64,000 bases of DNA from Escherichia coli. GTDB lineage: Bacteria; Pseudomonadota; Gammaproteobacteria; Enterobacterales; Enterobacteriaceae. This document shows positions 37,160 to 55,317 of this stretch, in pieces (position 1 is the stretch's first letter; every line of letters starts with the position of its first letter). A program made the position numbers and the translations under genes. A model generated the notes under the pieces. The model was given only the letters and a program-made list of their open reading frames with translations, had not been told where the DNA came from and ran no database searches. The stretch lies in assembly GCF_016903815.1 (NCBI RefSeq), contig NZ_CP069972.1; one strand, given 5' to 3'.

Positions 37160-37495
37160 TTTCCCGGAGGAGCGAAGCTCCTTCTGCCGTCCGGGTCTTC
37201 GGGGATTTCCCCGCAGTGGACCTTTCCGACGGGGGACGCTCACCACGTCACGGGGCAGTTGTCCGGGGGCAGACGCAAAAGTTTTTGACGCCTGCGGCAA
37301 AAAGTTTTGTGGCTGGTACATCTCTCCCCTGGACGACTGAAACGGGATGTGGTCATGTATGTACCCCCGGAAAGTCCGTCTGCGGAGAACAGGCCGCAGT
37401 GCGGCGGCAGACAGGCAGAGACAGCTGCGCCATCAGGCGCAGTGGCCTTACACACCGTAAGGTGTGCAGGGAGCGCCGCATACGGCGCGACTGAA
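37160..37495 (-). repeat. Family-A GC-rich structured repeat, copy 1 (Frpo/ssi-like single-strand promoter candidate)
   Basis: ~335 bp highly similar to 40553-41055 and 46898-47400; many internal inverted repeats. Confidence 0.6.
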
Positions 37496-40504: not shown

Positions 40505-40552
40505 GAAAACGTCTCCTTCTGCTGAATCAGGTCGCCGGGCCGACCGGTTGCT

Positions 40553-41055
40553 CCCCCGGAGGGGCGAAAGCCCCTTCTGCCGTCCACTTCTTCGGGGTTT
40601 CTCCCCGCAGTGGACCTTTCCGATGGGGCAGCGACTGCCACGGCACGGGGCAGTTGTCCGGGGGCAGACGCAAAAGTTTTTGACGCTTGCGGCAAAAAGT
40701 TTTGTGGCTGGTACATCTCTCCCCTGGACGGCTGAAACGTGTTGTGGCCGCTTCAGCCCCCGGAAAGTCCACAGCGGGGAAACAGGCCGCAGGGGGGGCG
40801 GCGGAAGGGCAGACAACTGCGCCATCAGGCGCAGTTTCCTTACACACCGTCAGGTGTGCAGGGAGCGCAGGTCACGGCGCGACAGAGGCGGCGCGACCGG
40901 AACGGTCGCTGCAAGCCTGGTTTTTCAGACATCGGACCGTAGCGGCAGCCCGAAACCGCGCCAGCGGGTTCGGCGGAGACTGGCGGGTGCGCCAGCAGCT
41001 GCCTGTCGGAGTCGGGCCTGACGACCGGATGCCGCCAGGCAGCCGGGAGCCGAAG
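40553..41055 (-). repeat. Family-A repeat, copy 2 (Frpo/ssi-like)
   Basis: ~500 bp; near-identical blocks shared with copies 1 and 3. Confidence 0.6.
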
Positions 41056-41737: not shown

Positions 41738-41761
41738 TCCCGAATCCTCCATAGTCACATG

Positions 41762-42095
41762 TTCTGCGACACCGGGCGGTGCCGTGCCTCCATCTTTGCC
41801 GGGCCTGCAGGGATGCAAGGGCGCAAGGGAAGCCGCAGCCCGACGCACACGGCTGGCGGGAGTTGGAGGGTGAGACCGCGAAATCTGAGCGGGTGAACGA
41901 CCGGAAAATCACGGCAGACGGGAAGGAGGGACCGGGTGACCGCAGCGGTTCATCTTACCTTGCATCCCGCCCGCAGAAGCCCGGCTACGATGGAGGCACG
42001 GCACAGCCCGCACACGACACGGCGGCCACATAACTGAAAACCCACAAGGCCATGCCCCGCATGGCCGGGTAAAAGCGGAGCCGGCGGCGACGTCC
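41762..42095 (-). repeat. Family-B GC-rich structured repeat, copy 1 (Frpo/ssi-like), upstream of ardA
   Basis: ~335 bp near-identical to 51055-51387. Confidence 0.55.
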
Positions 42096-42198
42096 TTATT
42101 CCGGCGAGAGCAGGGAGCACACCGCATGATCTCCAGACCACCCCTGGAACGAAACGATCATGACCGGCATGTCCCTGCGTAAAATATACATGCCTGGT

Positions 42199-46832: not shown

Positions 46833-46897
46833 AAGAACCTCCTGACTGAAAGATGTGAGATAAACCGGATACCGGCGACGGGACGTTCATGTGCCCC

Positions 46898-47400
46898 TTC
46901 AGAGGAGCGAAAGCTCCTCCTGCCGTCCACTTCACAGGGGTTTCTCCCCGCAGTGGACCTTTCCGATGGGGGCCCGTTTACCGCCTCACGGGGCAGCTGT
47001 CCGGGGGCGGACGCAAAATTTTTTGCCGGGTTCATGGCTAAAAATTTTGTGGCCGGTGCATCTCACCCTGGACAGATGGAACGGGAGGGGGTTACGTCTG
47101 CCCCCCGGAAAGTCCACAGCGGGGAAACAGGCCGCAGGGGGGGCGGCAGGAGGGAGGACTGCTGCGCCATCAGGCGCAGTTTCCTCACACACCGTCAGGT
47201 GTGCAGGGAGCGCAGGTCACGGCGCGACAGGGGCGGCGCGACCGGAACGGTCGCTGCAAGCCCGGGTTTTCACGCATCGGACCGTAGCGGCAGCCCGAAA
47301 CCGCGCCAGCGGGTTCGGCGGAGACTGGCGGGTGCGCCAGCAGCTGCCCGTCGGAGTCGGGCCTGACGACCGGATGCCGCCAGGCAGCCGGGAGCCGAAG
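46898..47400 (-). repeat. Family-A repeat, copy 3 (Frpo/ssi-like), upstream of ssb
   Basis: ~500 bp near-identical to copy 2; right edge is where the intron begins. Confidence 0.6.
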
Positions 47401-47406
47401 TGGGCG

Positions 47407-49747
47407 GTGCGACAGGAAGTCGCTTAACGTATTGTTTTACATTGATAAAACCAGCTATCCCATTAGCTGTAGCCTACCGGGACAGGCGTTGCCGGCAACG
47501 GCGGGGTCTGAAGCTCCCGGGACAACGAGAGCCGGGCGTCAGCCCGGGTAATGCCCCGTGAGGGGCTTTACCTTGCTGCAAGCATCATGCGGCAGGAGAG
47601 CAAGGCTGGTCAGAAGGGTTAACACATGTGAACTGTTGATAAACACCGTTATCGGCAACAGGCCAAAGATGCTGACAGGCCTGAACCAAAAGGTACGGGG
47701 TCCGGTTGCTACCTCGCGCACAGGGAGCACATGGGCGCAGAGACCCCCGGTGAAGAGACAGAACCCGCCCTGACCCTCTGTATGTTAAGCGGAACCTGGT
47801 AAACCCGTATCGCTGCCTCACAGGCAGGTGAACCGCAAGGAACACTGTTAGCGGTGCGGGCATAGGAGGACGGAAAAAGCGAATGCCCGGCTGTAATAAC
47901 CGGGATACGGGGCAGGTTCCCCGACGCGAAAGCGGGCAGACTTCCGTCTGGTCTTTAATTGCATGAAAAGCTGTAAAGCAGTCAAAAGGATATCAGCGAG
48001 ATGAATACACACATCAGTGTGTCCACGATACCCCACCCGACAGGCTGGCACACCATAAACTGGAAAGCATGCCATGCCCGGGTGCGAAAGCTACAGTTAC
48101 GGATTGCAAAGGCAACCCGACAGCAACAATGGCGGCAGGTCAGAGAACTACAGCGCATCCTCACCCGCTCATTCTCCGGCAAAGCCGTGGCTGTCAGGCG
48201 TGTAACTGAAAATACCGGTAAAAGGACACCCGGTATTGACGGAAAAATATGGCACACACCGAAGGAGAAATGGGAAGGAATATGCAGCCTGAATCTGTGT
48301 GGTTACAGGCCACAGCCACTACGGCGAATACATATCCCAAAATCAAACGGCAAAACGCGACCGCTGGGCATACCCACAATGAGGGACCGGGCCATGCAGG
48401 CACTGTGGCTGCTGGCTCTGGAACCCGTATCCGAGACCACTGCTGACCATAACAGCTATGGTTTCAGACCAATGCGCAGCACGCATGACGCCATTGAGTC
48501 CATTTTTCTGCGGATGAGCCAGAAAGTATCGCCCAAATGGATACTGGAGGGCGATATTAAAGGGTGCTTCGATAACATCAGCCATGACTGGCTGCTTTCC
48601 CATATTCCGATGGACAGGAGACTGCTTAAAAAATGGTTGAAAGCAGGTTACATGGAAAGAGGCGTGTTTAACCATACGAACAGCGGGACACCGCAGGGAG
48701 GCATCATATCCCCTGTTCTCGCCAACATGGCTCTGGACGGACTGGAGAAGGAACTGATGCAAACGTTCAGGAAAAGTGGTTATCACAGTGCAAAGCACCA
48801 GGTGAATTATGTGAGATATGCTGATGATTTCATCTGTTCAGGCAGCTCCCGTGAATTGCTGGAAAATGAGGTCAGACCACTGATTGCAGCTTTCATGCGC
48901 GAACGAGGGCTGGAACTGTCGGAAGAAAAAACAGCGATCACACATATAGATAAAGGCTTCGACTTTTTAGGGCAGAACGTCAGGAAGTACAACGGTAAAA
49001 TGCTGATTAAACCGTCGAAGAAAAACCTGAAGAACTTCCTCTGTAAAGTCAGAGAAATAATTAAACGCAATCCGACGCTCCCGGCATGGAAACTGATAGG
49101 CCAGCTAAACCCGGTGATCCGGGGATGGGCTACCTATCACCGACACGTCGTGGCGAAAGAAACATTTAATTATGTCGACACCCAAATCTGGCGAGCTATA
49201 TGGCGATGGTGTGTAAGACGGCATCCCCGGAAAGGATTGCGGTGGATCGCCGGACGATACTTCTCCTTTGAAGGCAGGCGCTGGATCTTTAAAGCCATAA
49301 CCCCGGAAGGGAAAATTCTGACACTCTTCCGGGCAATGGAAACACCGATAAAGCGCCATATAAAAATCAAAGGCGAAGCAACACCATACACCCCCGGAAT
49401 GGAAATCTACTTTGAACGTCGTCTGGATCTAATCTGGAAAGGCAAATCAAAGAAGATGAAGACAGTAGTTCAACTCTGGAAGAGGCAGGGGAAACACTGT
49501 CCGCAGTGCGGACAACTCATAACCAACCAGACCGGATGGAATATACATCACCGGATCAGGAAAGTTATGGGCGGCAGTGACGAACTGACCAATCTCGAGT
49601 TGTTACATCCGAACTGCCACCGACAGTTACACAGCAGGGAAGCCGGTGCTCACCGAAAGCACTTATAAAGGCTTGAGCGGAGTGCGGGGAAACTCGCACG
49701 CTCCGTTCTTAGGGGGCGGCGGCGCAGCAATGTGCCGCTGCTACCCG
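47407..49747 (+). mobile_element. Group II intron (boundaries approximate)
   Basis: 5' GTGCG at 47407; ORF in domain IV; domain V-like 34-nt hairpin 49675-49708; domain VI-like stem to ~49747. Confidence 0.8.
48001..49668 (+). CDS. Group II intron-encoded reverse transcriptase/maturase with HNH endonuclease (555 aa)
   Basis: RT motifs incl. YADD; maturase X region; C-terminal HNH (HCPQCG...HHRIRKVMGG...HPNCHRQLH). Confidence 0.9.
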   Translation: MNTHISVSTIPHPTGWHTINWKACHARVRKLQLRIAKATRQQQWRQVRELQRILTRSFSGKAVAVRRVTENTGKRTPGIDGKIWHTPKEKWEGICSLNLCGYRPQPLRRIHIPKSNGKTRPLGIPTMRDRAMQALWLLALEPVSETTADHNSYGFRPMRSTHDAIESIFLRMSQKVSPKWILEGDIKGCFDNISHDWLLSHIPMDRRLLKKWLKAGYMERGVFNHTNSGTPQGGIISPVLANMALDGLEKELMQTFRKSGYHSAKHQVNYVRYADDFICSGSSRELLENEVRPLIAAFMRERGLELSEEKTAITHIDKGFDFLGQNVRKYNGKMLIKPSKKNLKNFLCKVREIIKRNPTLPAWKLIGQLNPVIRGWATYHRHVVAKETFNYVDTQIWRAIWRWCVRRHPRKGLRWIAGRYFSFEGRRWIFKAITPEGKILTLFRAMETPIKRHIKIKGEATPYTPGMEIYFERRLDLIWKGKSKKMKTVVQLWKRQGKHCPQCGQLITNQTGWNIHHRIRKVMGGSDELTNLELLHPNCHRQLHSREAGAHRKHL

Positions 49748-49946
49748 ACCAATAAAAGACAGCCAGAAACGGTGACAGTGTCACGGAATATCACACCTGT
49801 TCCCTGCATACAGCCATACACTACCTTCTGACCGGAAAGCCGGGCCGGCAGCGCCGCAGGCGCTGCACCCCGCGTTTCCGGCAGGCGTCAGCCTGCCAGG
49901 GGTTTTCGCGCGGGCTGACAGGCGGCCTCCACCGCCTGCCCCTGTA

Positions 49947-51029: not shown

Positions 51030-51054
51030 GATGTTTTCCTCCGTTGTTCACATA

Positions 51055-51387
51055 TTCCGCGACACCGGGCGGTGCCGTGCCTCCATCTTTGCCGGGCCTG
51101 CAGGGTTGCAAGGGCGCAAGGGAAGCCGCAGCCTGACGCGCACGGCTGACGGGAGTTGAAGGGTGAGACCGCGAAATCTGAGCGGGTGAACGACCGGAAA
51201 ATCACGGCAGACGGGAAGGAGGGACCGGGTGACCGCAGCGGTTCACCTTACCTTGCAACCCGCCCGCAGAAGCCCGGCTACGATGGAGGCACGGCACAGC
51301 CCGCACACGGCGCTGAGGCCACATAACTGAAAACCCACAAGGCCATGCCCCGCATGGCCGGGTAAAGCGGAGCCTGCGGCGACATCC
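51055..51387 (-). repeat. Family-B repeat, copy 2 (Frpo/ssi-like), upstream of klcA-like gene
   Basis: Near-identical to 41762-42095. Confidence 0.55.
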
Positions 51388-51444
51388 TTTTGCTCTTTCC
51401 GGGGACCGGCTGGAAAAGGCGGAGATTTTTCCCCGCCAGCGTCA

Positions 51445-52215
51445 TCATTTCCGGATTTTCGCCAGTGCATCCGCCATGCTGCGGATTTCAGTCCGGGCTT
51501 CCAGGACCACCTCCCGCAGAATATCCCGGTCAAACCAGCGACGGGACGGTTCATCCGGTATACGCAGCACATCGCAGGCCAGCCCACTGGACAGGATATG
51601 CTCCACACACTCACTGACCAGATACATTTCCACCGACGAAAAACGAGCGCCCCGGTTCAGGATGGCATCGAGCACCACGGGCAGGTTTTCGTCGTCTTCA
51701 TCGAGCCAGCAGGGGTGATCGCTTTCCTTCACAACCAGGCGAAAGCGGCGCGTCTGGCGGGTCAGCAACGTCTGACCGGTTGTGGTCAGCGCCGCCCTGA
51801 TACGCCGCGCATCTTCTGCCACCCGGCAACTGACACTGCGTACCGCATCGTGCACCGCATCAAGAACTGCCCTGATTTCGTCTTCGGTCAGCCATTCTCC
51901 GGCATACGGGAAAGACACCTGCGTTCCGTCTGCCGGAAGTACCGGCAGCGACTGCCACTGACTGCCGGACAGAACAAGTTCCGCCCCGGTTCCGGTCAGT
52001 TTCTGAATGGCAGAGGCCAGGAGCGGCGGCAGTACGCCGCCGTGACGGTTGATAAGTAACGTCGCCAGCCGGGGCGCATCCAGCAGAACATAAATGCTGA
52101 TCCAGCCCGGATACTTCGGGTTACGCTGGTCAACATCCGTCTCTTCCGGCCAGCCCTGCGCCAGCAGCAGGTTACGGGCGTGGCGACAAATCAGTGCATT
52201 CAGCGTTTCGTTCAT
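51445..52215 (-). CDS. Hypothetical leading-region protein (256 aa)
   Basis: Long ORF, no motif recognised. Confidence 0.5.
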
Positions 52216-52259
52216 GATTCATGGTCTCCCTGAATCGCCGCCCGCAGGCGGCGATAACA

Positions 52260-52694
52260 TCAGTCGTTTTCGCGTGTGTTGTTTTTCAGCAGGGCGCGGG
52301 CCTGATTAACCACCGCCTGTCGGCGGGTGACGCATTCCGGGACGGCGAGGCCGTTATCACGGGCGGCCCACTCACGTTTCCACAGTGCCTGTTCGGCGGT
52401 CTGAATCAGGGACGCCAGCAGTTCAGCAGGGACGGTCACCTGGCGGTTTTCTCTCACGTTATTGATGATCTCCATCGCCGCACCGGAAGAAATACCGGAT
52501 TCAGTCCGCTGGTCTTCCGGGATGTCCTCCAGGCGCGCCAGGACAGTCCTGATTTCATGATCGGACAGGGAAATATCCATTCCGTCAGCGAGGGCCTGAA
52601 TTTCTTCCGGGGACCAGATAACCAGCATCAGCGGCGTATCTCCCGGATACTTTGCTGCCAGCGCCCGGCAGAGCGTTTCGCATGTTCCGTACAT
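52260..52694 (-). CDS. Hypothetical leading-region protein (144 aa), paralogue of 50135..50557
   Basis: See paralogue. Confidence 0.5.
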   Translation of the reverse strand: MYGTCETLCRALAAKYPGDTPLMLVIWSPEEIQALADGMDISLSDHEIRTVLARLEDIPEDQRTESGISSGAAMEIINNVRENRQVTVPAELLASLIQTAEQALWKREWAARDNGLAVPECVTRRQAVVNQARALLKNNTREND

Positions 52695-52707
52695 TCTCGT
52701 CTCCTTC

Positions 52708-52929
52708 TCAATCTTTGAAGCAGGAATCCAGTTCCAGAATTTCGGTATACGCTTCCATGAACAGGCGATTGGCGCGATACAGCGTCTGGCGTGTCAGGCG
52801 TTCAACAAGCACATCGGAATCAAAGCGACAGCGATGCTCCATATCGTTCAGCCTGGCCCGAAGGTCACACATGGTGTTGGCCACCTCCGCCACGTCGGCG
52901 CGAAGTTTTTCGTGTCCGGCATAGTTCAT
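52708..52929 (-). CDS. Hypothetical small protein (73 aa)
   Basis: Stop abuts MTase start (52930); operon-like. Confidence 0.4.
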   Translation of the reverse strand: MNYAGHEKLRADVAEVANTMCDLRARLNDMEHRCRFDSDVLVERLTRQTLYRANRLFMEAYTEILELDSCFKD

Positions 52930-53613
52930 TTACGCAGCCTCCGGTTCAAACCAGTTATCATTCGCGGCCCCCTGCTGCATGGCCCGTTGCACGGCGGTCA
53001 GTCGTTGCTGTCCGGCACGGTGATACTGTTCAAGCAGCTCGATACCGATATACCGGCGTCCGGACTGAAGAGCGGCCACGCAGGTTGATCCGCTGCCTGC
53101 AAACGGGTCCAGCACAATCGCGTTCGGATGTGTGAAGCTCTCAATCAGTGGTTGCAGGCTGGTAACGGGCTTTTCCGTCGGGTGATGGCGATTGCCCGAA
53201 TATTTCCAGCCCAGCACGTCCGGCAGCGGGTTTTGTGGCAGACGTGGACGGCCTTTTGCCAGGATGTAGGCACATTCGTGGCGATAGCCCACATATGCGG
53301 CCTTCGATGTGTAGTTTTTGGTGAAGACCAGGTGACCAACAACGCTGAATCCCGCATTTTTCCAGGCAGACATAAAACGATCGACGCGATTCCAGCCATA
53401 GAAGCTCACCATTAACGCGTCTTTTTTGAGTACGCGGTACATCTCATTACAGGCCGGTTGCAGCCATTCATCGGTTTTATCGCCGGCAATGGTACGCCCC
53501 TGACGGTCACGAAAACCGACGAGGTACGGCGGGTCGGTGAGGATGAAATCAATGGCGTTATCAGGGATACGGGCCATAACATCGATGCAGTTACCGAGGA
53601 CAAAACGGGACAT
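52930..53613 (-). CDS. Orphan DNA methyltransferase, N6-adenine/N4-cytosine type (227 aa)
   Basis: Motif IV ILTDPPY near N-terminus; motif I-like DPFAGSGST near C-terminus; no restriction gene adjacent. Confidence 0.85.
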   Translation of the reverse strand: MSRFVLGNCIDVMARIPDNAIDFILTDPPYLVGFRDRQGRTIAGDKTDEWLQPACNEMYRVLKKDALMVSFYGWNRVDRFMSAWKNAGFSVVGHLVFTKNYTSKAAYVGYRHECAYILAKGRPRLPQNPLPDVLGWKYSGNRHHPTEKPVTSLQPLIESFTHPNAIVLDPFAGSGSTCVAALQSGRRYIGIELLEQYHRAGQQRLTAVQRAMQQGAANDNWFEPEAA

Positions 53614-53996
53614 ACCAAACTCCTTCTCTTACAGAGGGCACCGGGAGGGCACCCCTGTGGTGCCCGTTCCCCGCTGCCTGTGGGCTGTTCACCGCGTCCG
53701 GTAACGGGTCAGGCCGACCGTGGAATACCGCAGCCGTCGTCTTTTTGACGGCAAGGCTATGCCGCGAAAGCGGCTTGAAGGGCGTTCATCAGAAAAGGGC
53801 GACGGGCTGGCGTACACTGTCACCGACGCCAGCCGGGAGCGGTAAAAGCGCCCGTCCCGTGCCCGGCCGGACGCGGACACTGACCACAGGCAGCGTTTAT
53901 GCCGCGCCGCGTCAGCCGGCGCAGTAAAAAGAGGAGCACGGCGACATCCTTTACCGGAAAAGAAACGGGCGGTTGCCCGCCCGTCTCCGTCATACT

Positions 53997-54923
53997 TCAT
54001 CCGCCATAATGCGCCACATTGTCGATTATCCACGCAGGTCCGGTGACTTCCGGCAGCTCATCATCATCTGTCGGGGAAGACCATTCCAGTTCCCCCCACA
54101 GCACATCAACGAGCTCTCCGCGCTCATACAACTGCCAGCCACAGAAATTGCAGCCCTGTTCGGCGTACCAGTGCTCCAGCGTGCAGCCGAAACGGCGGCT
54201 TAATTCTGCAACAACGTCGCTTTCCGGCTGACACCACGGCGTGTCGAAATCTACCTGAATGAAGTTTTCCCCCTGACTGCTGATATTCAGGTCATACCCA
54301 CAAGGCCACTTCACGCCATACCGTTCTGTATACCAGTGATATGCAGAAGGAACACCGTTCAGAACACCGCCGTTAAAGCCATTCACTTCAATATCCAGGC
54401 GGGTCGGCAAAACCGTCAGCAGGTCAAACGGCATGGTTTTTTCCGGCAGTACGTTGTCACACAGACGGTTCCACCACACCGATACATCCTCGTTACCCCA
54501 GATGTCACACCAGTCACCTCTTTTTGCGGTGAAATGCACAGTGATAGTTTCCCTGACATCATCCGGTAACTCTTCCCAGCGACGCTGTCCAGTACCGCTC
54601 TGCAGCCAGAGTTCATGCAGCATCAGGCAGTTTTGCTCATCCAGCAGTACACCGTTCTGCAGGTGTGTCAGCCAGCGGGTGAACGCGATATTTTCCGGTG
54701 ATACAGCACCACGTCCGGCAGCCGTCACTCCGGGGCACTGCTCAGAGCGGATATTTTCAGTGATCTGCAGAAGTCCGGCACTTCCGGCCAGAAACAGCTG
54801 AATACCTTCATTTGTGGCGCGGCGATAAAGCGGTGTAACTGCACCGCTGGCCAGTCGTTTAATCTCAGCGATCTGTGCCGGTTCACCAGAAAAATACATA
54901 CGATTCGAGCACCAGTTTGGCAT
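53997..54923 (-). CDS. Hypothetical leading-region protein (308 aa)
   Basis: GAGGAG before ATG 54923 (inside track ORF); W/C-rich; no motif recognised. Confidence 0.5.
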   Translation of the reverse strand: MPNWCSNRMYFSGEPAQIAEIKRLASGAVTPLYRRATNEGIQLFLAGSAGLLQITENIRSEQCPGVTAAGRGAVSPENIAFTRWLTHLQNGVLLDEQNCLMLHELWLQSGTGQRRWEELPDDVRETITVHFTAKRGDWCDIWGNEDVSVWWNRLCDNVLPEKTMPFDLLTVLPTRLDIEVNGFNGGVLNGVPSAYHWYTERYGVKWPCGYDLNISSQGENFIQVDFDTPWCQPESDVVAELSRRFGCTLEHWYAEQGCNFCGWQLYERGELVDVLWGELEWSSPTDDDELPEVTGPAWIIDNVAHYGG

Positions 54924-55275
54924 GGGAATTCTCCTCTCACATGCGGCCTCCATCAGGCCGTGCCGCACCTGTTACCGGGCGACCGCATACGAATGCAGGT
55001 GCGGCCCCGAAGCCGCAGCGCGTGGAGGAGGAACGACGAAACGTGACCGGGTGAGGAGGCCGGCGACAGCGACACACTTGCATCGGATGCAGCCCGGTTA
55101 ACGTGCCGGCACGGCCTGGGTAACCAGGTATTTTGTCCACAGAACCGTGCACAAAATGCTGTGGATAAGCTGGACACAGCAGCCCACAGCAGGCATACAG
55201 CCACACACTCAGAGAATTGAGCGTTTTTTAGTCACAACAATGACATTTGACTGTGTGCGGATTCAGTTATTAGAA

Positions 55276-55295
55276 TACTGTATAAACATACAGCA
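55276..55295 (+). promoter_or_regulatory. LexA (SOS) box upstream of impC
   Basis: TACTGTATAAACATACAGCA fits CTGT-N8-ACAG; 22 nt upstream of impC. Confidence 0.75.
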
Positions 55296-55317
55296 TAAAG
55301 AAAAGGGAGATGAGAAC

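Follow-up and report, generated by a model that had tools for sequence, protein, structure and literature searches.

The segment at 53614-53964 of the window (the 64,000-nucleotide stretch of Escherichia coli DNA that was analysed) is, judging from sequence comparison, very probably the class 3 single-stranded DNA (ssDNA) promoter, or ssp3, of the leading region of an IncI1 plasmid, with an ortholog of M.EcoGIX as the gene behind it. The identity of this element as an ssDNA promoter was already described in 2025 and is not a new discovery. The residual novelty lies in a structural model of the element, a Y-shaped fold built around a three-way junction, and in the wide distribution of the core of one of its arms, termed arm A.

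Comparison with known plasmids identifies the window as the leading region of an IncI1 plasmid. In a search of plasmid records, positions 52900-54050 were 100% identical to the IncI1 plasmid pHUSEC41-1. This 1151-bp query, which includes the methyltransferase gene, was found at 90-99% identity in at least 5000 enterobacterial plasmids (90-95% in most), and the noncoding upstream element alone was 95-100% identical across at least 5000 plasmids. Annotation transfer placed nikA and oriT at ~35.3-35.8 kb of the window, with oriT at ~35.6-35.8 kb, and from oriT the order of genes is ardA, psiA, psiB, a parB-like gene, ssb, klcA/ardB, and the methyltransferase gene, all of which are on the minus strand and transcribed toward oriT. 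Since the leading genes are all on the minus strand and oriT is at lower coordinates, the plus strand is both the transferred strand and the template strand for these genes. The region contains three class 1 copies (37175-37494, 40533-41055, and 46876-47400), which are the three Frpo/ssi copies of ColIb-P9, and two class 2 copies (41755-42097 and 51048-51389) positioned upstream of ardA and klcA; a previous annotation of the window made without database searches (hereafter the sequence-only reading) had grouped these copies as its families A and B, respectively.

The gene at 52930-53613 on the minus strand is predicted from its open reading frame, domain matches, and identity to M.EcoGIX to encode an orphan beta-class N6-adenine DNA methyltransferase of 227 residues. 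The protein has the beta-class order of motifs, with DPPY at residues 27-30 preceding the FxGxG motif FAGSGST at residues 171-177, and it matches Pfam PF01555 (N6_N4_Mtase, E = 3.4e-39), NCBIfam NF010253 (500 bits against a cut-off of 244), and the PADLOC type II methyltransferase model MTase_II. It is 93% identical to M.EcoGIX of pESBL (212 of 227 residues, with 15 amino-acid differences), which together with the PF01555 and NF010253 matches places it in the M.EcoGIX family as a protein with a beta-class N6/N4 domain. A Shine-Dalgarno sequence, AAGGAG, is apparent at 53620-53625 on the minus strand, 6 nt ahead of the ATG, and reads CTCCTT on the transferred strand. The four neighbouring proteins, whose RefSeq names are hypothetical, DUF1380, and DUF1281, had no NCBIfam or PADLOC match, and an endonuclease was absent from the feature names among the listed matches to the at least 5000 plasmid records, where the same names recurred throughout. 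The arrangement of a type II restriction-modification system, in which an endonuclease gene adjoins that of the methyltransferase, was therefore not found. The gene order places three ORFs downstream on the minus strand at 51445-52929, encoding proteins of 73 aa, 144 aa (DUF1380), and 256 aa, and these are probably co-transcribed with the methyltransferase gene as far as the class 2 promoter that comes next, at 51048-51389, as suggested by the description of six operons in Wen et al. (PMC12672017).

The intergenic gap upstream of the methyltransferase gene spans 383 nt, from 53614 to 53996, and has a G+C content of 64.5% (66.1% in 53640-53990), compared with 51% across the whole window and 56% in the leading region. 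When folded as ssDNA, the plus strand of the upstream region has a predicted free energy of -109.3 kcal/mol, against -81.1 +/- 4.0 kcal/mol for shuffled sequences (z = -7.1), and none of 100 shuffles equalled it; the minus strand folds at z = -5.4. On the minus strand at 53965-53984, the sequence and a predicted helix, GGGCGGGCAACCGCCCG followed by TTTCTTTT, indicate an intrinsic terminator of the upstream DUF1281 gene (53997-54899). As read from the sequence, this terminator insulates the methyltransferase operon from transcription upstream, and the methyltransferase gene thus requires its own promoter. The terminator was missing from the output of the promoter/terminator scanner. RefSeq annotates a 'hypothetical protein' ORF that spans the upstream region and overlaps the stop codon of the DUF1281 gene and its terminator. 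Two smaller parts flank the main structure on the plus strand. A small hairpin at 53647-53665, GGGCACC/GGTGCCC in the predicted fold, sits between the ribosome-binding site and the main structure within the template of the predicted 5' UTR, and it covaries across genera (GGACGTC/GACGTCC and GGGAGCC/GGCTCCC) and in F (GGGCGCC/GGCGCCC). The flank motif GAGGAGCACGGCGACATCCTT at 53931-53951, on the promoter-distal side, is common to both class 2 copies and is found more loosely in class 1.

These results bear out much of what the sequence-only reading had noticed, namely a 227-aa methyltransferase with DPPY and FAGSGST motifs (the ORF at 52930-53613 on the minus strand, with the motifs at 27-30 and 171-177 and a PF01555 match) that has no linked endonuclease, none being present among the four neighbours or in the feature names of the listed plasmid matches. 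Its description of a GC-rich hairpin-forming region at 53640-53990 held for composition and fold (66.1% G+C; z = -7.1 on the plus strand) but not for extent, since the true gap is 53614-53996 and the minus-strand sequence at 53965-53984 is the DUF1281 terminator and not part of a promoter. The secondary-structure prediction for the plus strand that it had proposed as a check gave the strong fold reported above for 53614-53996 (-109.3 kcal/mol, z = -7.1).

Homology, position, and fold all point to class 3. The 383-nt upstream region is 98% identical to its counterpart in pESBL (NC_018659.1), from which it differs by a few substitutions and one-base indels, and 97% identical to that in plasmid F (NC_002483.1), which identifies it with the element 5' of M.EcoGIX in both plasmids. 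It is directly upstream of the gene it would drive, in the leading region, and the transferred strand is the template. The transferred strand folds at -109.3 kcal/mol, below the threshold of < -75 kcal/mol published for large stem-loops (Wen et al., NAR 2025, PMC12672017). The authors removed donors after mating, sequenced RNA from the transconjugants, and described six operons of the leading region that were strongly induced and that each followed an intergenic segment able to form a hairpin. The promoters were divided into three classes, with ssi1-3 and Frpo in class 1 and the promoters of ardA and klcA in class 2; the hairpin 5' of M.EcoGIX was the sole class 3 promoter and was unlike all other hairpins identified there. 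In the same study, the class 3 operon was strongly induced at 15 min in new transconjugants, 5' RACE on transconjugant RNA mapped all six start sites (class 3 included), induction was longer in uvrD recipients, and classes 2 and 3 were conserved in F. A preprint from January 2026 (10.64898/2026.01.09.698686) renamed the classes ssp1-3 and treated ssp3 as portable, substituting it for ssp2 in F with equal promoter strength and without roadblock activity. As for the enzyme, Fomenkov et al. (NAR 2020, PMC7736820) studied M.EcoGIX from pESBL, an IncI1 plasmid, and reported that it modifies adenine in SAY sites exclusively when the DNA is single-stranded, that it co-purifies with PolI, that donor cells lack the modification, and that it guards the plasmid against restriction in recipient cells only if oriT has its native orientation; an Frpo-like promoter was assumed upstream of its gene.

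The three remaining suggestions of the sequence-only reading can be set against this literature and against profile searches. It had proposed that a leading-region orphan methyltransferase protects incoming DNA, which matches the published experiments with the 93% identical M.EcoGIX (PMC7736820), and that a third type of single-strand promoter may drive the gene, which coincides with class 3 of PMC12672017 and agrees with the 98% identity to the pESBL region. It had also judged the element to be unlike families A and B. A class 1 profile built from the three window copies had no match in 53614-53996, so that homology to class 1 was not detected there, and a class 2 profile gave only E = 0.096 on the class 3 region, in a match limited to the flank motif at 53898-53953 that does not establish homology to class 2. 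The same class 2 profile finds a short class 2 relative at 54975-55115 with E = 1.7e-7. The two profile results indicate that the class 3 element is a separate kind at the sequence level. Methylome sequencing of plasmid-bearing cells, which had been suggested as a way to find the target motif, would probably show nothing because donors lack the modification (PMC7736820).

Relatives of the element made it possible to examine how the fold is conserved. A scan of one genome per species yielded 80 loci with homologous methyltransferases, and sequence searches with class 3 located relatives immediately ahead of the methyltransferase gene in Raoultella, Citrobacter, Entomohabitans, Erwinia, and Edwardsiella, as well as in Klebsiella grimontii, Buttiauxella, Cedecea, and Hafnia. 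Second copies were found in front of other small ORFs. In a covariation alignment of 24 distinct homologs from ~15 genera, 96.5% of the cells in the consensus structure were paired, compared with 36-46% when the partners were slid by 1-3 columns. Among these 24 sequences, 21 pairs had changed on both sides, a number reached by none of 500 shuffles, and such compensatory changes in sequence support the fold. The inner core is nearly invariant in Enterobacterales, and covariation there cannot settle the inner fold. The stems of the main element also carry information on the strand in which the structure forms. On the plus strand they contain 107 G.T cells and 10 A.C cells, where the consensus structure was made by a program that counts G.U as a pair and ~83 against 10 remain without one invariant G.T column. 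A G.T pair on the plus strand corresponds to a C.A mismatch on the mRNA strand, which argues that selection for the fold has acted on the transferred strand of DNA rather than on the transcript.

The consensus fold on the plus strand is Y-shaped, with a basal stem, arm A, and arm B meeting at a three-way junction. The 5' strand of the basal stem (53672-53708), which is the proposed template strand of the promoter, forms helices that are 95-100% paired and include 10 pairs changed on both sides, and its 3' strand in the consensus fold (53856-53895) is the proposed non-template strand. Arm A (53709-53778), delineated by the consensus fold and profile searches, consists of helix 7 (53709-53716 with 53771-53778), helix 8, which is invariant (CGTGGAATA with TATGCCGCG), and an apical hairpin that varies (53733-53752). 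Distant relatives have a variable or reduced arm B (53780-53853), which in the consensus carries an apical hairpin formed by 53808-53813 and 53826-53831. In the MFE fold of the window sequence, the inner helices (53734-53750 with 53783-53805) were rejected, as they are 73-86% paired in relatives compared with 92-100% for the consensus; with DNA parameters, the consensus inner fold is ~13 kcal/mol costlier than the MFE fold in the window sequence (-85.2 versus -98.2 kcal/mol).

Across 40 distinct sequences, arm A has 22 invariant columns, and its core, CGTGGAATA...TATGCCGCGAAAG, is invariant from the Enterobacterales to Achromobacter and Bordetella. Helix 7 exists in at least eight compensatory variants, yet TTGA is kept at its junction end (TTGC in some second copies). 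An arm A profile has matches in Aeromonas, Serratia, Arsenophonus, Xenophilus, Achromobacter, Bordetella, and Pusillimonas, which are located 80-150 nt upstream of a methyltransferase homolog and always in the template-strand orientation, and the upstream regions from Achromobacter and Bordetella fold at z = -5.1 and -5.8, respectively. We tentatively propose, with somewhat less than even confidence, a three-way-junction promoter in which the stacking of arm A on the basal stem would assemble a -35 element, TTGA|CC, and in which A(-11) and T(-7) would be unpaired beforehand. In this model the core of arm A, CGTGGAATA...TATGCCGCGAAAG including its fixed T.G wobble and A.G mismatch, would be a portable recognition module of ancient origin, found alongside the methyltransferase family from the Enterobacterales to the Burkholderiales.

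The proposed promoter boxes follow from the geometry of the fold. RNA polymerase must copy the plus strand toward lower coordinates, and the non-template strand of the hairpin promoter would therefore be its 3' arm, read toward the base. TTGA at 53775-53778 on the plus strand, invariant in 24 of 24 sequences, would supply the first four bases of a composite -35 element, TTGACC, that is completed by CC at 53856-53857. With arm A stacked on the basal stem, ACGGGTCA(A/G) at 53704-53711 would face CTTGA (53774-53778) together with CCCGT (53856-53860), and arm B would leave at the nick; the template side of the proposed -35, GGTCA(A/G), is continuous at 53706-53711. The composite TTGACC matches the -35 consensus at five of six positions and is unchanged in all 24 sequences. 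The spacer to the proposed -10 would be 18-19 paired positions rather than 17. The candidate -10-like hexamer, GACACT at 53876-53881 on the plus strand ((G/C)ACACT in relatives), sits in a conserved bubble and matches the consensus at three of six positions only. Its second position is A (A53877, -11) and its sixth is T (T53881, -7) in 24/24 sequences, and both bases are mismatched, T being opposite T or C and A being opposite C or G. The -11 A and the -7 T are the two bases that sigma-70 flips from the helix.

The position of the -10 element predicts a transcription start at 53679 on the minus strand (non-template position 53888, template T53679), where the RNA would begin with A. This start, which equals ~54715 in pESBL NC_018659.1, implies a 5' UTR of 66 nt. 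We infer the -35 and -10 assignments and the start from conservation, and the boxes assigned by the authors of the published study may differ. Achromobacter fits the scheme, with TTGA plus CC, 17 nt, and GACTGT with the A bulged out. A plain consensus scan of the plus strand found no convincing promoter, the best site having 7 of 12 matches. Two other candidate boxes were rejected. TTGACG at 53745 as a -35 is not conserved and falls in the apical loop of arm A, which is itself variable, and TACACT/TAAAAT in the loop of arm B (53813-53818) as a -10 is absent in distant relatives and would be a hexamer within the 5' side of a hairpin loop, where it has no downstream template.

Taken through conjugation, the element would act as follows. 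The plus strand, which is the template strand of the gene, would enter the recipient first with its 5' end leading from oriT, and while it is single-stranded the ~225-nt core at 53672-53895 would fold into a long stem ending in the three-way junction. Host RNA polymerase would initiate on the folded DNA and transcribe toward the methyltransferase gene, whose product would modify adenines in SAY sites on ssDNA and so spare the new duplex from restriction. Synthesis of the complementary strand would abolish the fold and switch the promoter off. The general steps of entry, folding, initiation, methylation, and switch-off have been established by published work on pESBL and F.

An alternative explanation is that the intergenic region holds an ordinary double-stranded sigma-70 promoter and that the hairpins are incidental to a G+C-rich sequence. 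The terminator at 53965-53984 does mean that the operon needs its own promoter, and a -35-like CTGACC is present on the coding strand; this explanation is nevertheless extremely unlikely. A consensus scan of the minus strand from 53400 to 55300 revealed no sigma-70-like promoter site, and the same site read as duplex consists of CTGACC and TGAACA separated by 15 nt and lacks a usable -10, which would also explain the switch-off upon second-strand synthesis. Moreover, the stems stay paired through compensatory changes, the burst of expression in new transconjugants is transient (PMC12672017), and protection is lost when oriT is inverted (PMC7736820). A function of the conserved structure at the RNA level, whether as a small RNA or as a regulator within the 5' UTR of the mRNA, is very unlikely as well. 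Watson-Crick compensatory changes would suit either strand, the small hairpin at 53647-53665 would sit in the predicted 5' UTR, and Rfam gives a weak match to the Erse sRNA (19.3 bits against a gathering score of 138). The excess of G.T over A.C cells on the plus strand (107 versus 10) argues against such a role, however, since G.T pairs become C.A mismatches on the mRNA, and most of the structure lies upstream of the start in the proposed model. The plus strand, which carries the Erse match, is antisense to the gene, and relatives show no such match; a literature search on the Erse sRNA gave nothing relevant. Hardly credible, too, is that the region encodes the RefSeq 'hypothetical protein' at 53689-54000 on the minus strand. 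This ORF of 103-114 aa is present and annotated in many records, but one-base indels fall inside it around 53866-53875 among the window, pESBL, and L006, its substitutions track base-pairing and not codon structure, and it overlaps the stop codon and terminator of the upstream gene; the ORF is probably spurious.

The other two alternatives deserve more weight. Class 3 could be a strongly diverged copy of the class 2 promoters of ardA and klcA and not a separate kind. MAFFT aligns several blocks of the two in the same order and they have the flank motif GGAGC..GGCGACATCCTT in common, yet the class 2 profile scores E = 0.096 on the flank motif only, against 1.7e-7 for the genuine relative at 54975-55115, and the invariant arm A core has no class 2 counterpart, which makes such descent unlikely. 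A modest possibility is that the element serves mainly or additionally as a single-strand initiation site that primes the complementary strand, through transcripts made by RNA polymerase or through primase acting on arm A. Arm A contains an invariant GCGAAAGC, and conservation of the core far exceeds what a weak promoter would appear to need. The sequence d(GCGAAAGC) forms a very stable DNA mini-hairpin. The covariation of helix 7, however, favours long-range pairing over a local mini-hairpin. Priming of DNA synthesis by transcripts has been reported in vitro for Frpo and in vivo for ssp1 (PMC7736820; preprint 10.64898/2026.01.09.698686), whereas no replication roadblock was reported at ssp3 (preprint 10.64898/2026.01.09.698686). 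A role in priming would in any case supplement the promoter function and not replace it, and an ssDNA promoter of class 3 is the reading we retain.

As such a promoter, the element is the same as class 3/ssp3 of pESBL-EA11 and F and has the same position and orientation before an M.EcoGIX ortholog in a leading-region context; the window plasmid differs from pESBL and F in having a group II intron at another place in its leading region, 47406-49750. Transcription that starts on a DNA hairpin existing only while the strands are separated is also a feature of phage N4, whose early promoters are ssDNA hairpins recognised by the virion RNA polymerase with host SSB. N4 relies on its own polymerase and on hairpins of 5-7 bp, whereas the window element would be a ~225-nt structure presumably used by the host sigma-70 polymerase. 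In the class 1 promoters Frpo and ssi1-3, which lie upstream of leading genes, a long hairpin formed by the transferred strand likewise restores promoter boxes that host RNA polymerase can use, and it works only in single-stranded form, but the class 3 consensus is a three-way junction and not a simple hairpin, and it lacks an A/T-rich apical stem resembling an UP element. The class 1 ssDNA promoters were reportedly described by Masai and Arai in 1997, Bates in 1999, and Nasim in 2004. Class 2 (ssp2, upstream of ardA and klcA/ardB) has the same role, strand, and distal flank motif, GGAGC-N-GGCGAC(A/G)TCCTT, as class 3, although their cores are unrelated at the profile level, and ssp2 blocks complementary-strand synthesis whereas ssp3 does not (preprint 10.64898/2026.01.09.698686). 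The single-strand-specific methyltransferases M.EcoGIX and M.BceJIII (PMC7736820) share with the M.EcoGIX ortholog of the window their beta-class order of motifs and their genomic setting.

Single-strand promoters allow anti-defence genes to be expressed in the first minutes after entry, before the second strand is made. The element described here controls a broad-specificity protective methyltransferase and is present in at least 5000 sequenced plasmids of E. coli, Klebsiella, Salmonella, and Shigella, many of which spread resistance genes. To the published account of this promoter our analysis makes modest additions, namely independent evolutionary proof that the folding occurs on the transferred strand, a map of promoter boxes that can be tested, and a core that reaches beyond the plasmids studied so far. 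If the three-way-junction model is true and the published figure differs from it, for instance in showing a simple stem-loop or other boxes, the model and its phylogenetic reach would provide new detail on how host RNA polymerase reads folded ssDNA.

A common motif, GGAGC-N(3-11)-GGCG(C)GAC, terminates the promoter-distal side of all six single-strand promoter elements in the window (6/6; pattern matches on the + strand at 37470, 40862, 42077, 47207, 51369 and 53933), and a longer form, GGCGAC(A/G)TCCTT, occurs in classes 2 and 3 of the ssDNA promoters. The window holds 10 matches to the flank pattern vs an expected 1.95 +/- 1.4, and 6 of the 10 fall at the six promoter elements. A further + strand match, at 47391, marks the distal edge of the class 1 copy at ssb. 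The GGAG of the motif is able to pair with CTCC, which is complementary to the ribosome-binding site. At 47406-49750, a group II intron carrying its ltrA reverse transcriptase is inserted directly past the class 1 copy that drives ssb, on the distal side of that copy; the intron is absent from pHUSEC41-1 and pESBL and present in some IncI1 plasmids.

Six ssDNA promoters only are described in the text of Wen et al. (PMC12672017). A candidate seventh would be a short class 2-related element that lies upstream of the gene for a DUF1281 protein, which occupies 53997-54899 on the - strand. This element, at 54975-55115 on the + strand, was recovered with a profile E of 1.7e-7, contains the CTTGCA...CCCGGTTAACGT block, folds only modestly (z = -2.0), and is similar to Frpo*1/Frpo*3, which Samuel et al. 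2024 gave as candidates of low certainty. Further along the + strand, an ordinary sigma-70 promoter (TTGACT-18 nt-TAGAAT, 55247-55290) lies in front of the impC-impA-impB operon, which encodes DinI-like, UmuD and UmuC proteins and is directed away from the leading genes. The sigma-70 promoter overlaps the LexA-box-like CTGTATAAACATACAG.

The non-coding class 3 promoter (53614-53965) is 95-100% identical among plasmids (at least 5000 records), and is better conserved than a query that also takes in the methyltransferase gene under its control (52930-53613), for which identities are mostly 90-95%. RefSeq annotates a hypothetical protein, WP_031935767.1 (WP_001310011.1 in pESBL), at 53689-54000 on the - strand, wholly inside the promoter structure and the adjoining terminator. 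Since close relatives differ by one-base indels in this ORF, we argue that it is probably a spurious gene call that has been repeated in many plasmid records. Rfam RF02757, the Erse small RNA, weakly matches the + strand at 53654-53849 (19.3 bits, E = 0.0034, against a gathering score of 138), with the similarity centred on the invariant core of arm A of the class 3 fold (UAUG..GC.GAAGC...UGAAG). The match may be due to chance; another possibility is that RF02757 could be a distant single-strand promoter relative that has been classified as an sRNA.

A second class 3 element was found in several plasmids from Citrobacter, Buttiauxella and Klebsiella grimontii. Among the loci with homologous methyltransferases, second copies lie at 976-1325 in L011, 458-809 in L017, 453-813 in L024, 1188-1528 in L040 and 1772-2117 in L041, and at about 420-530 in L064, L067-L069 and L071. 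Achromobacter and Bordetella loci carry second copies as well, with TTGC replacing the TTGA at the junction end of arm A. The ORFs downstream of a second copy were listed for one locus, L011 (Citrobacter amalonaticus), where the copy precedes two small unannotated ORFs of 155 and 111 aa immediately upstream of the methyltransferase module. The class 3 promoter is therefore not exclusive to the methyltransferase.
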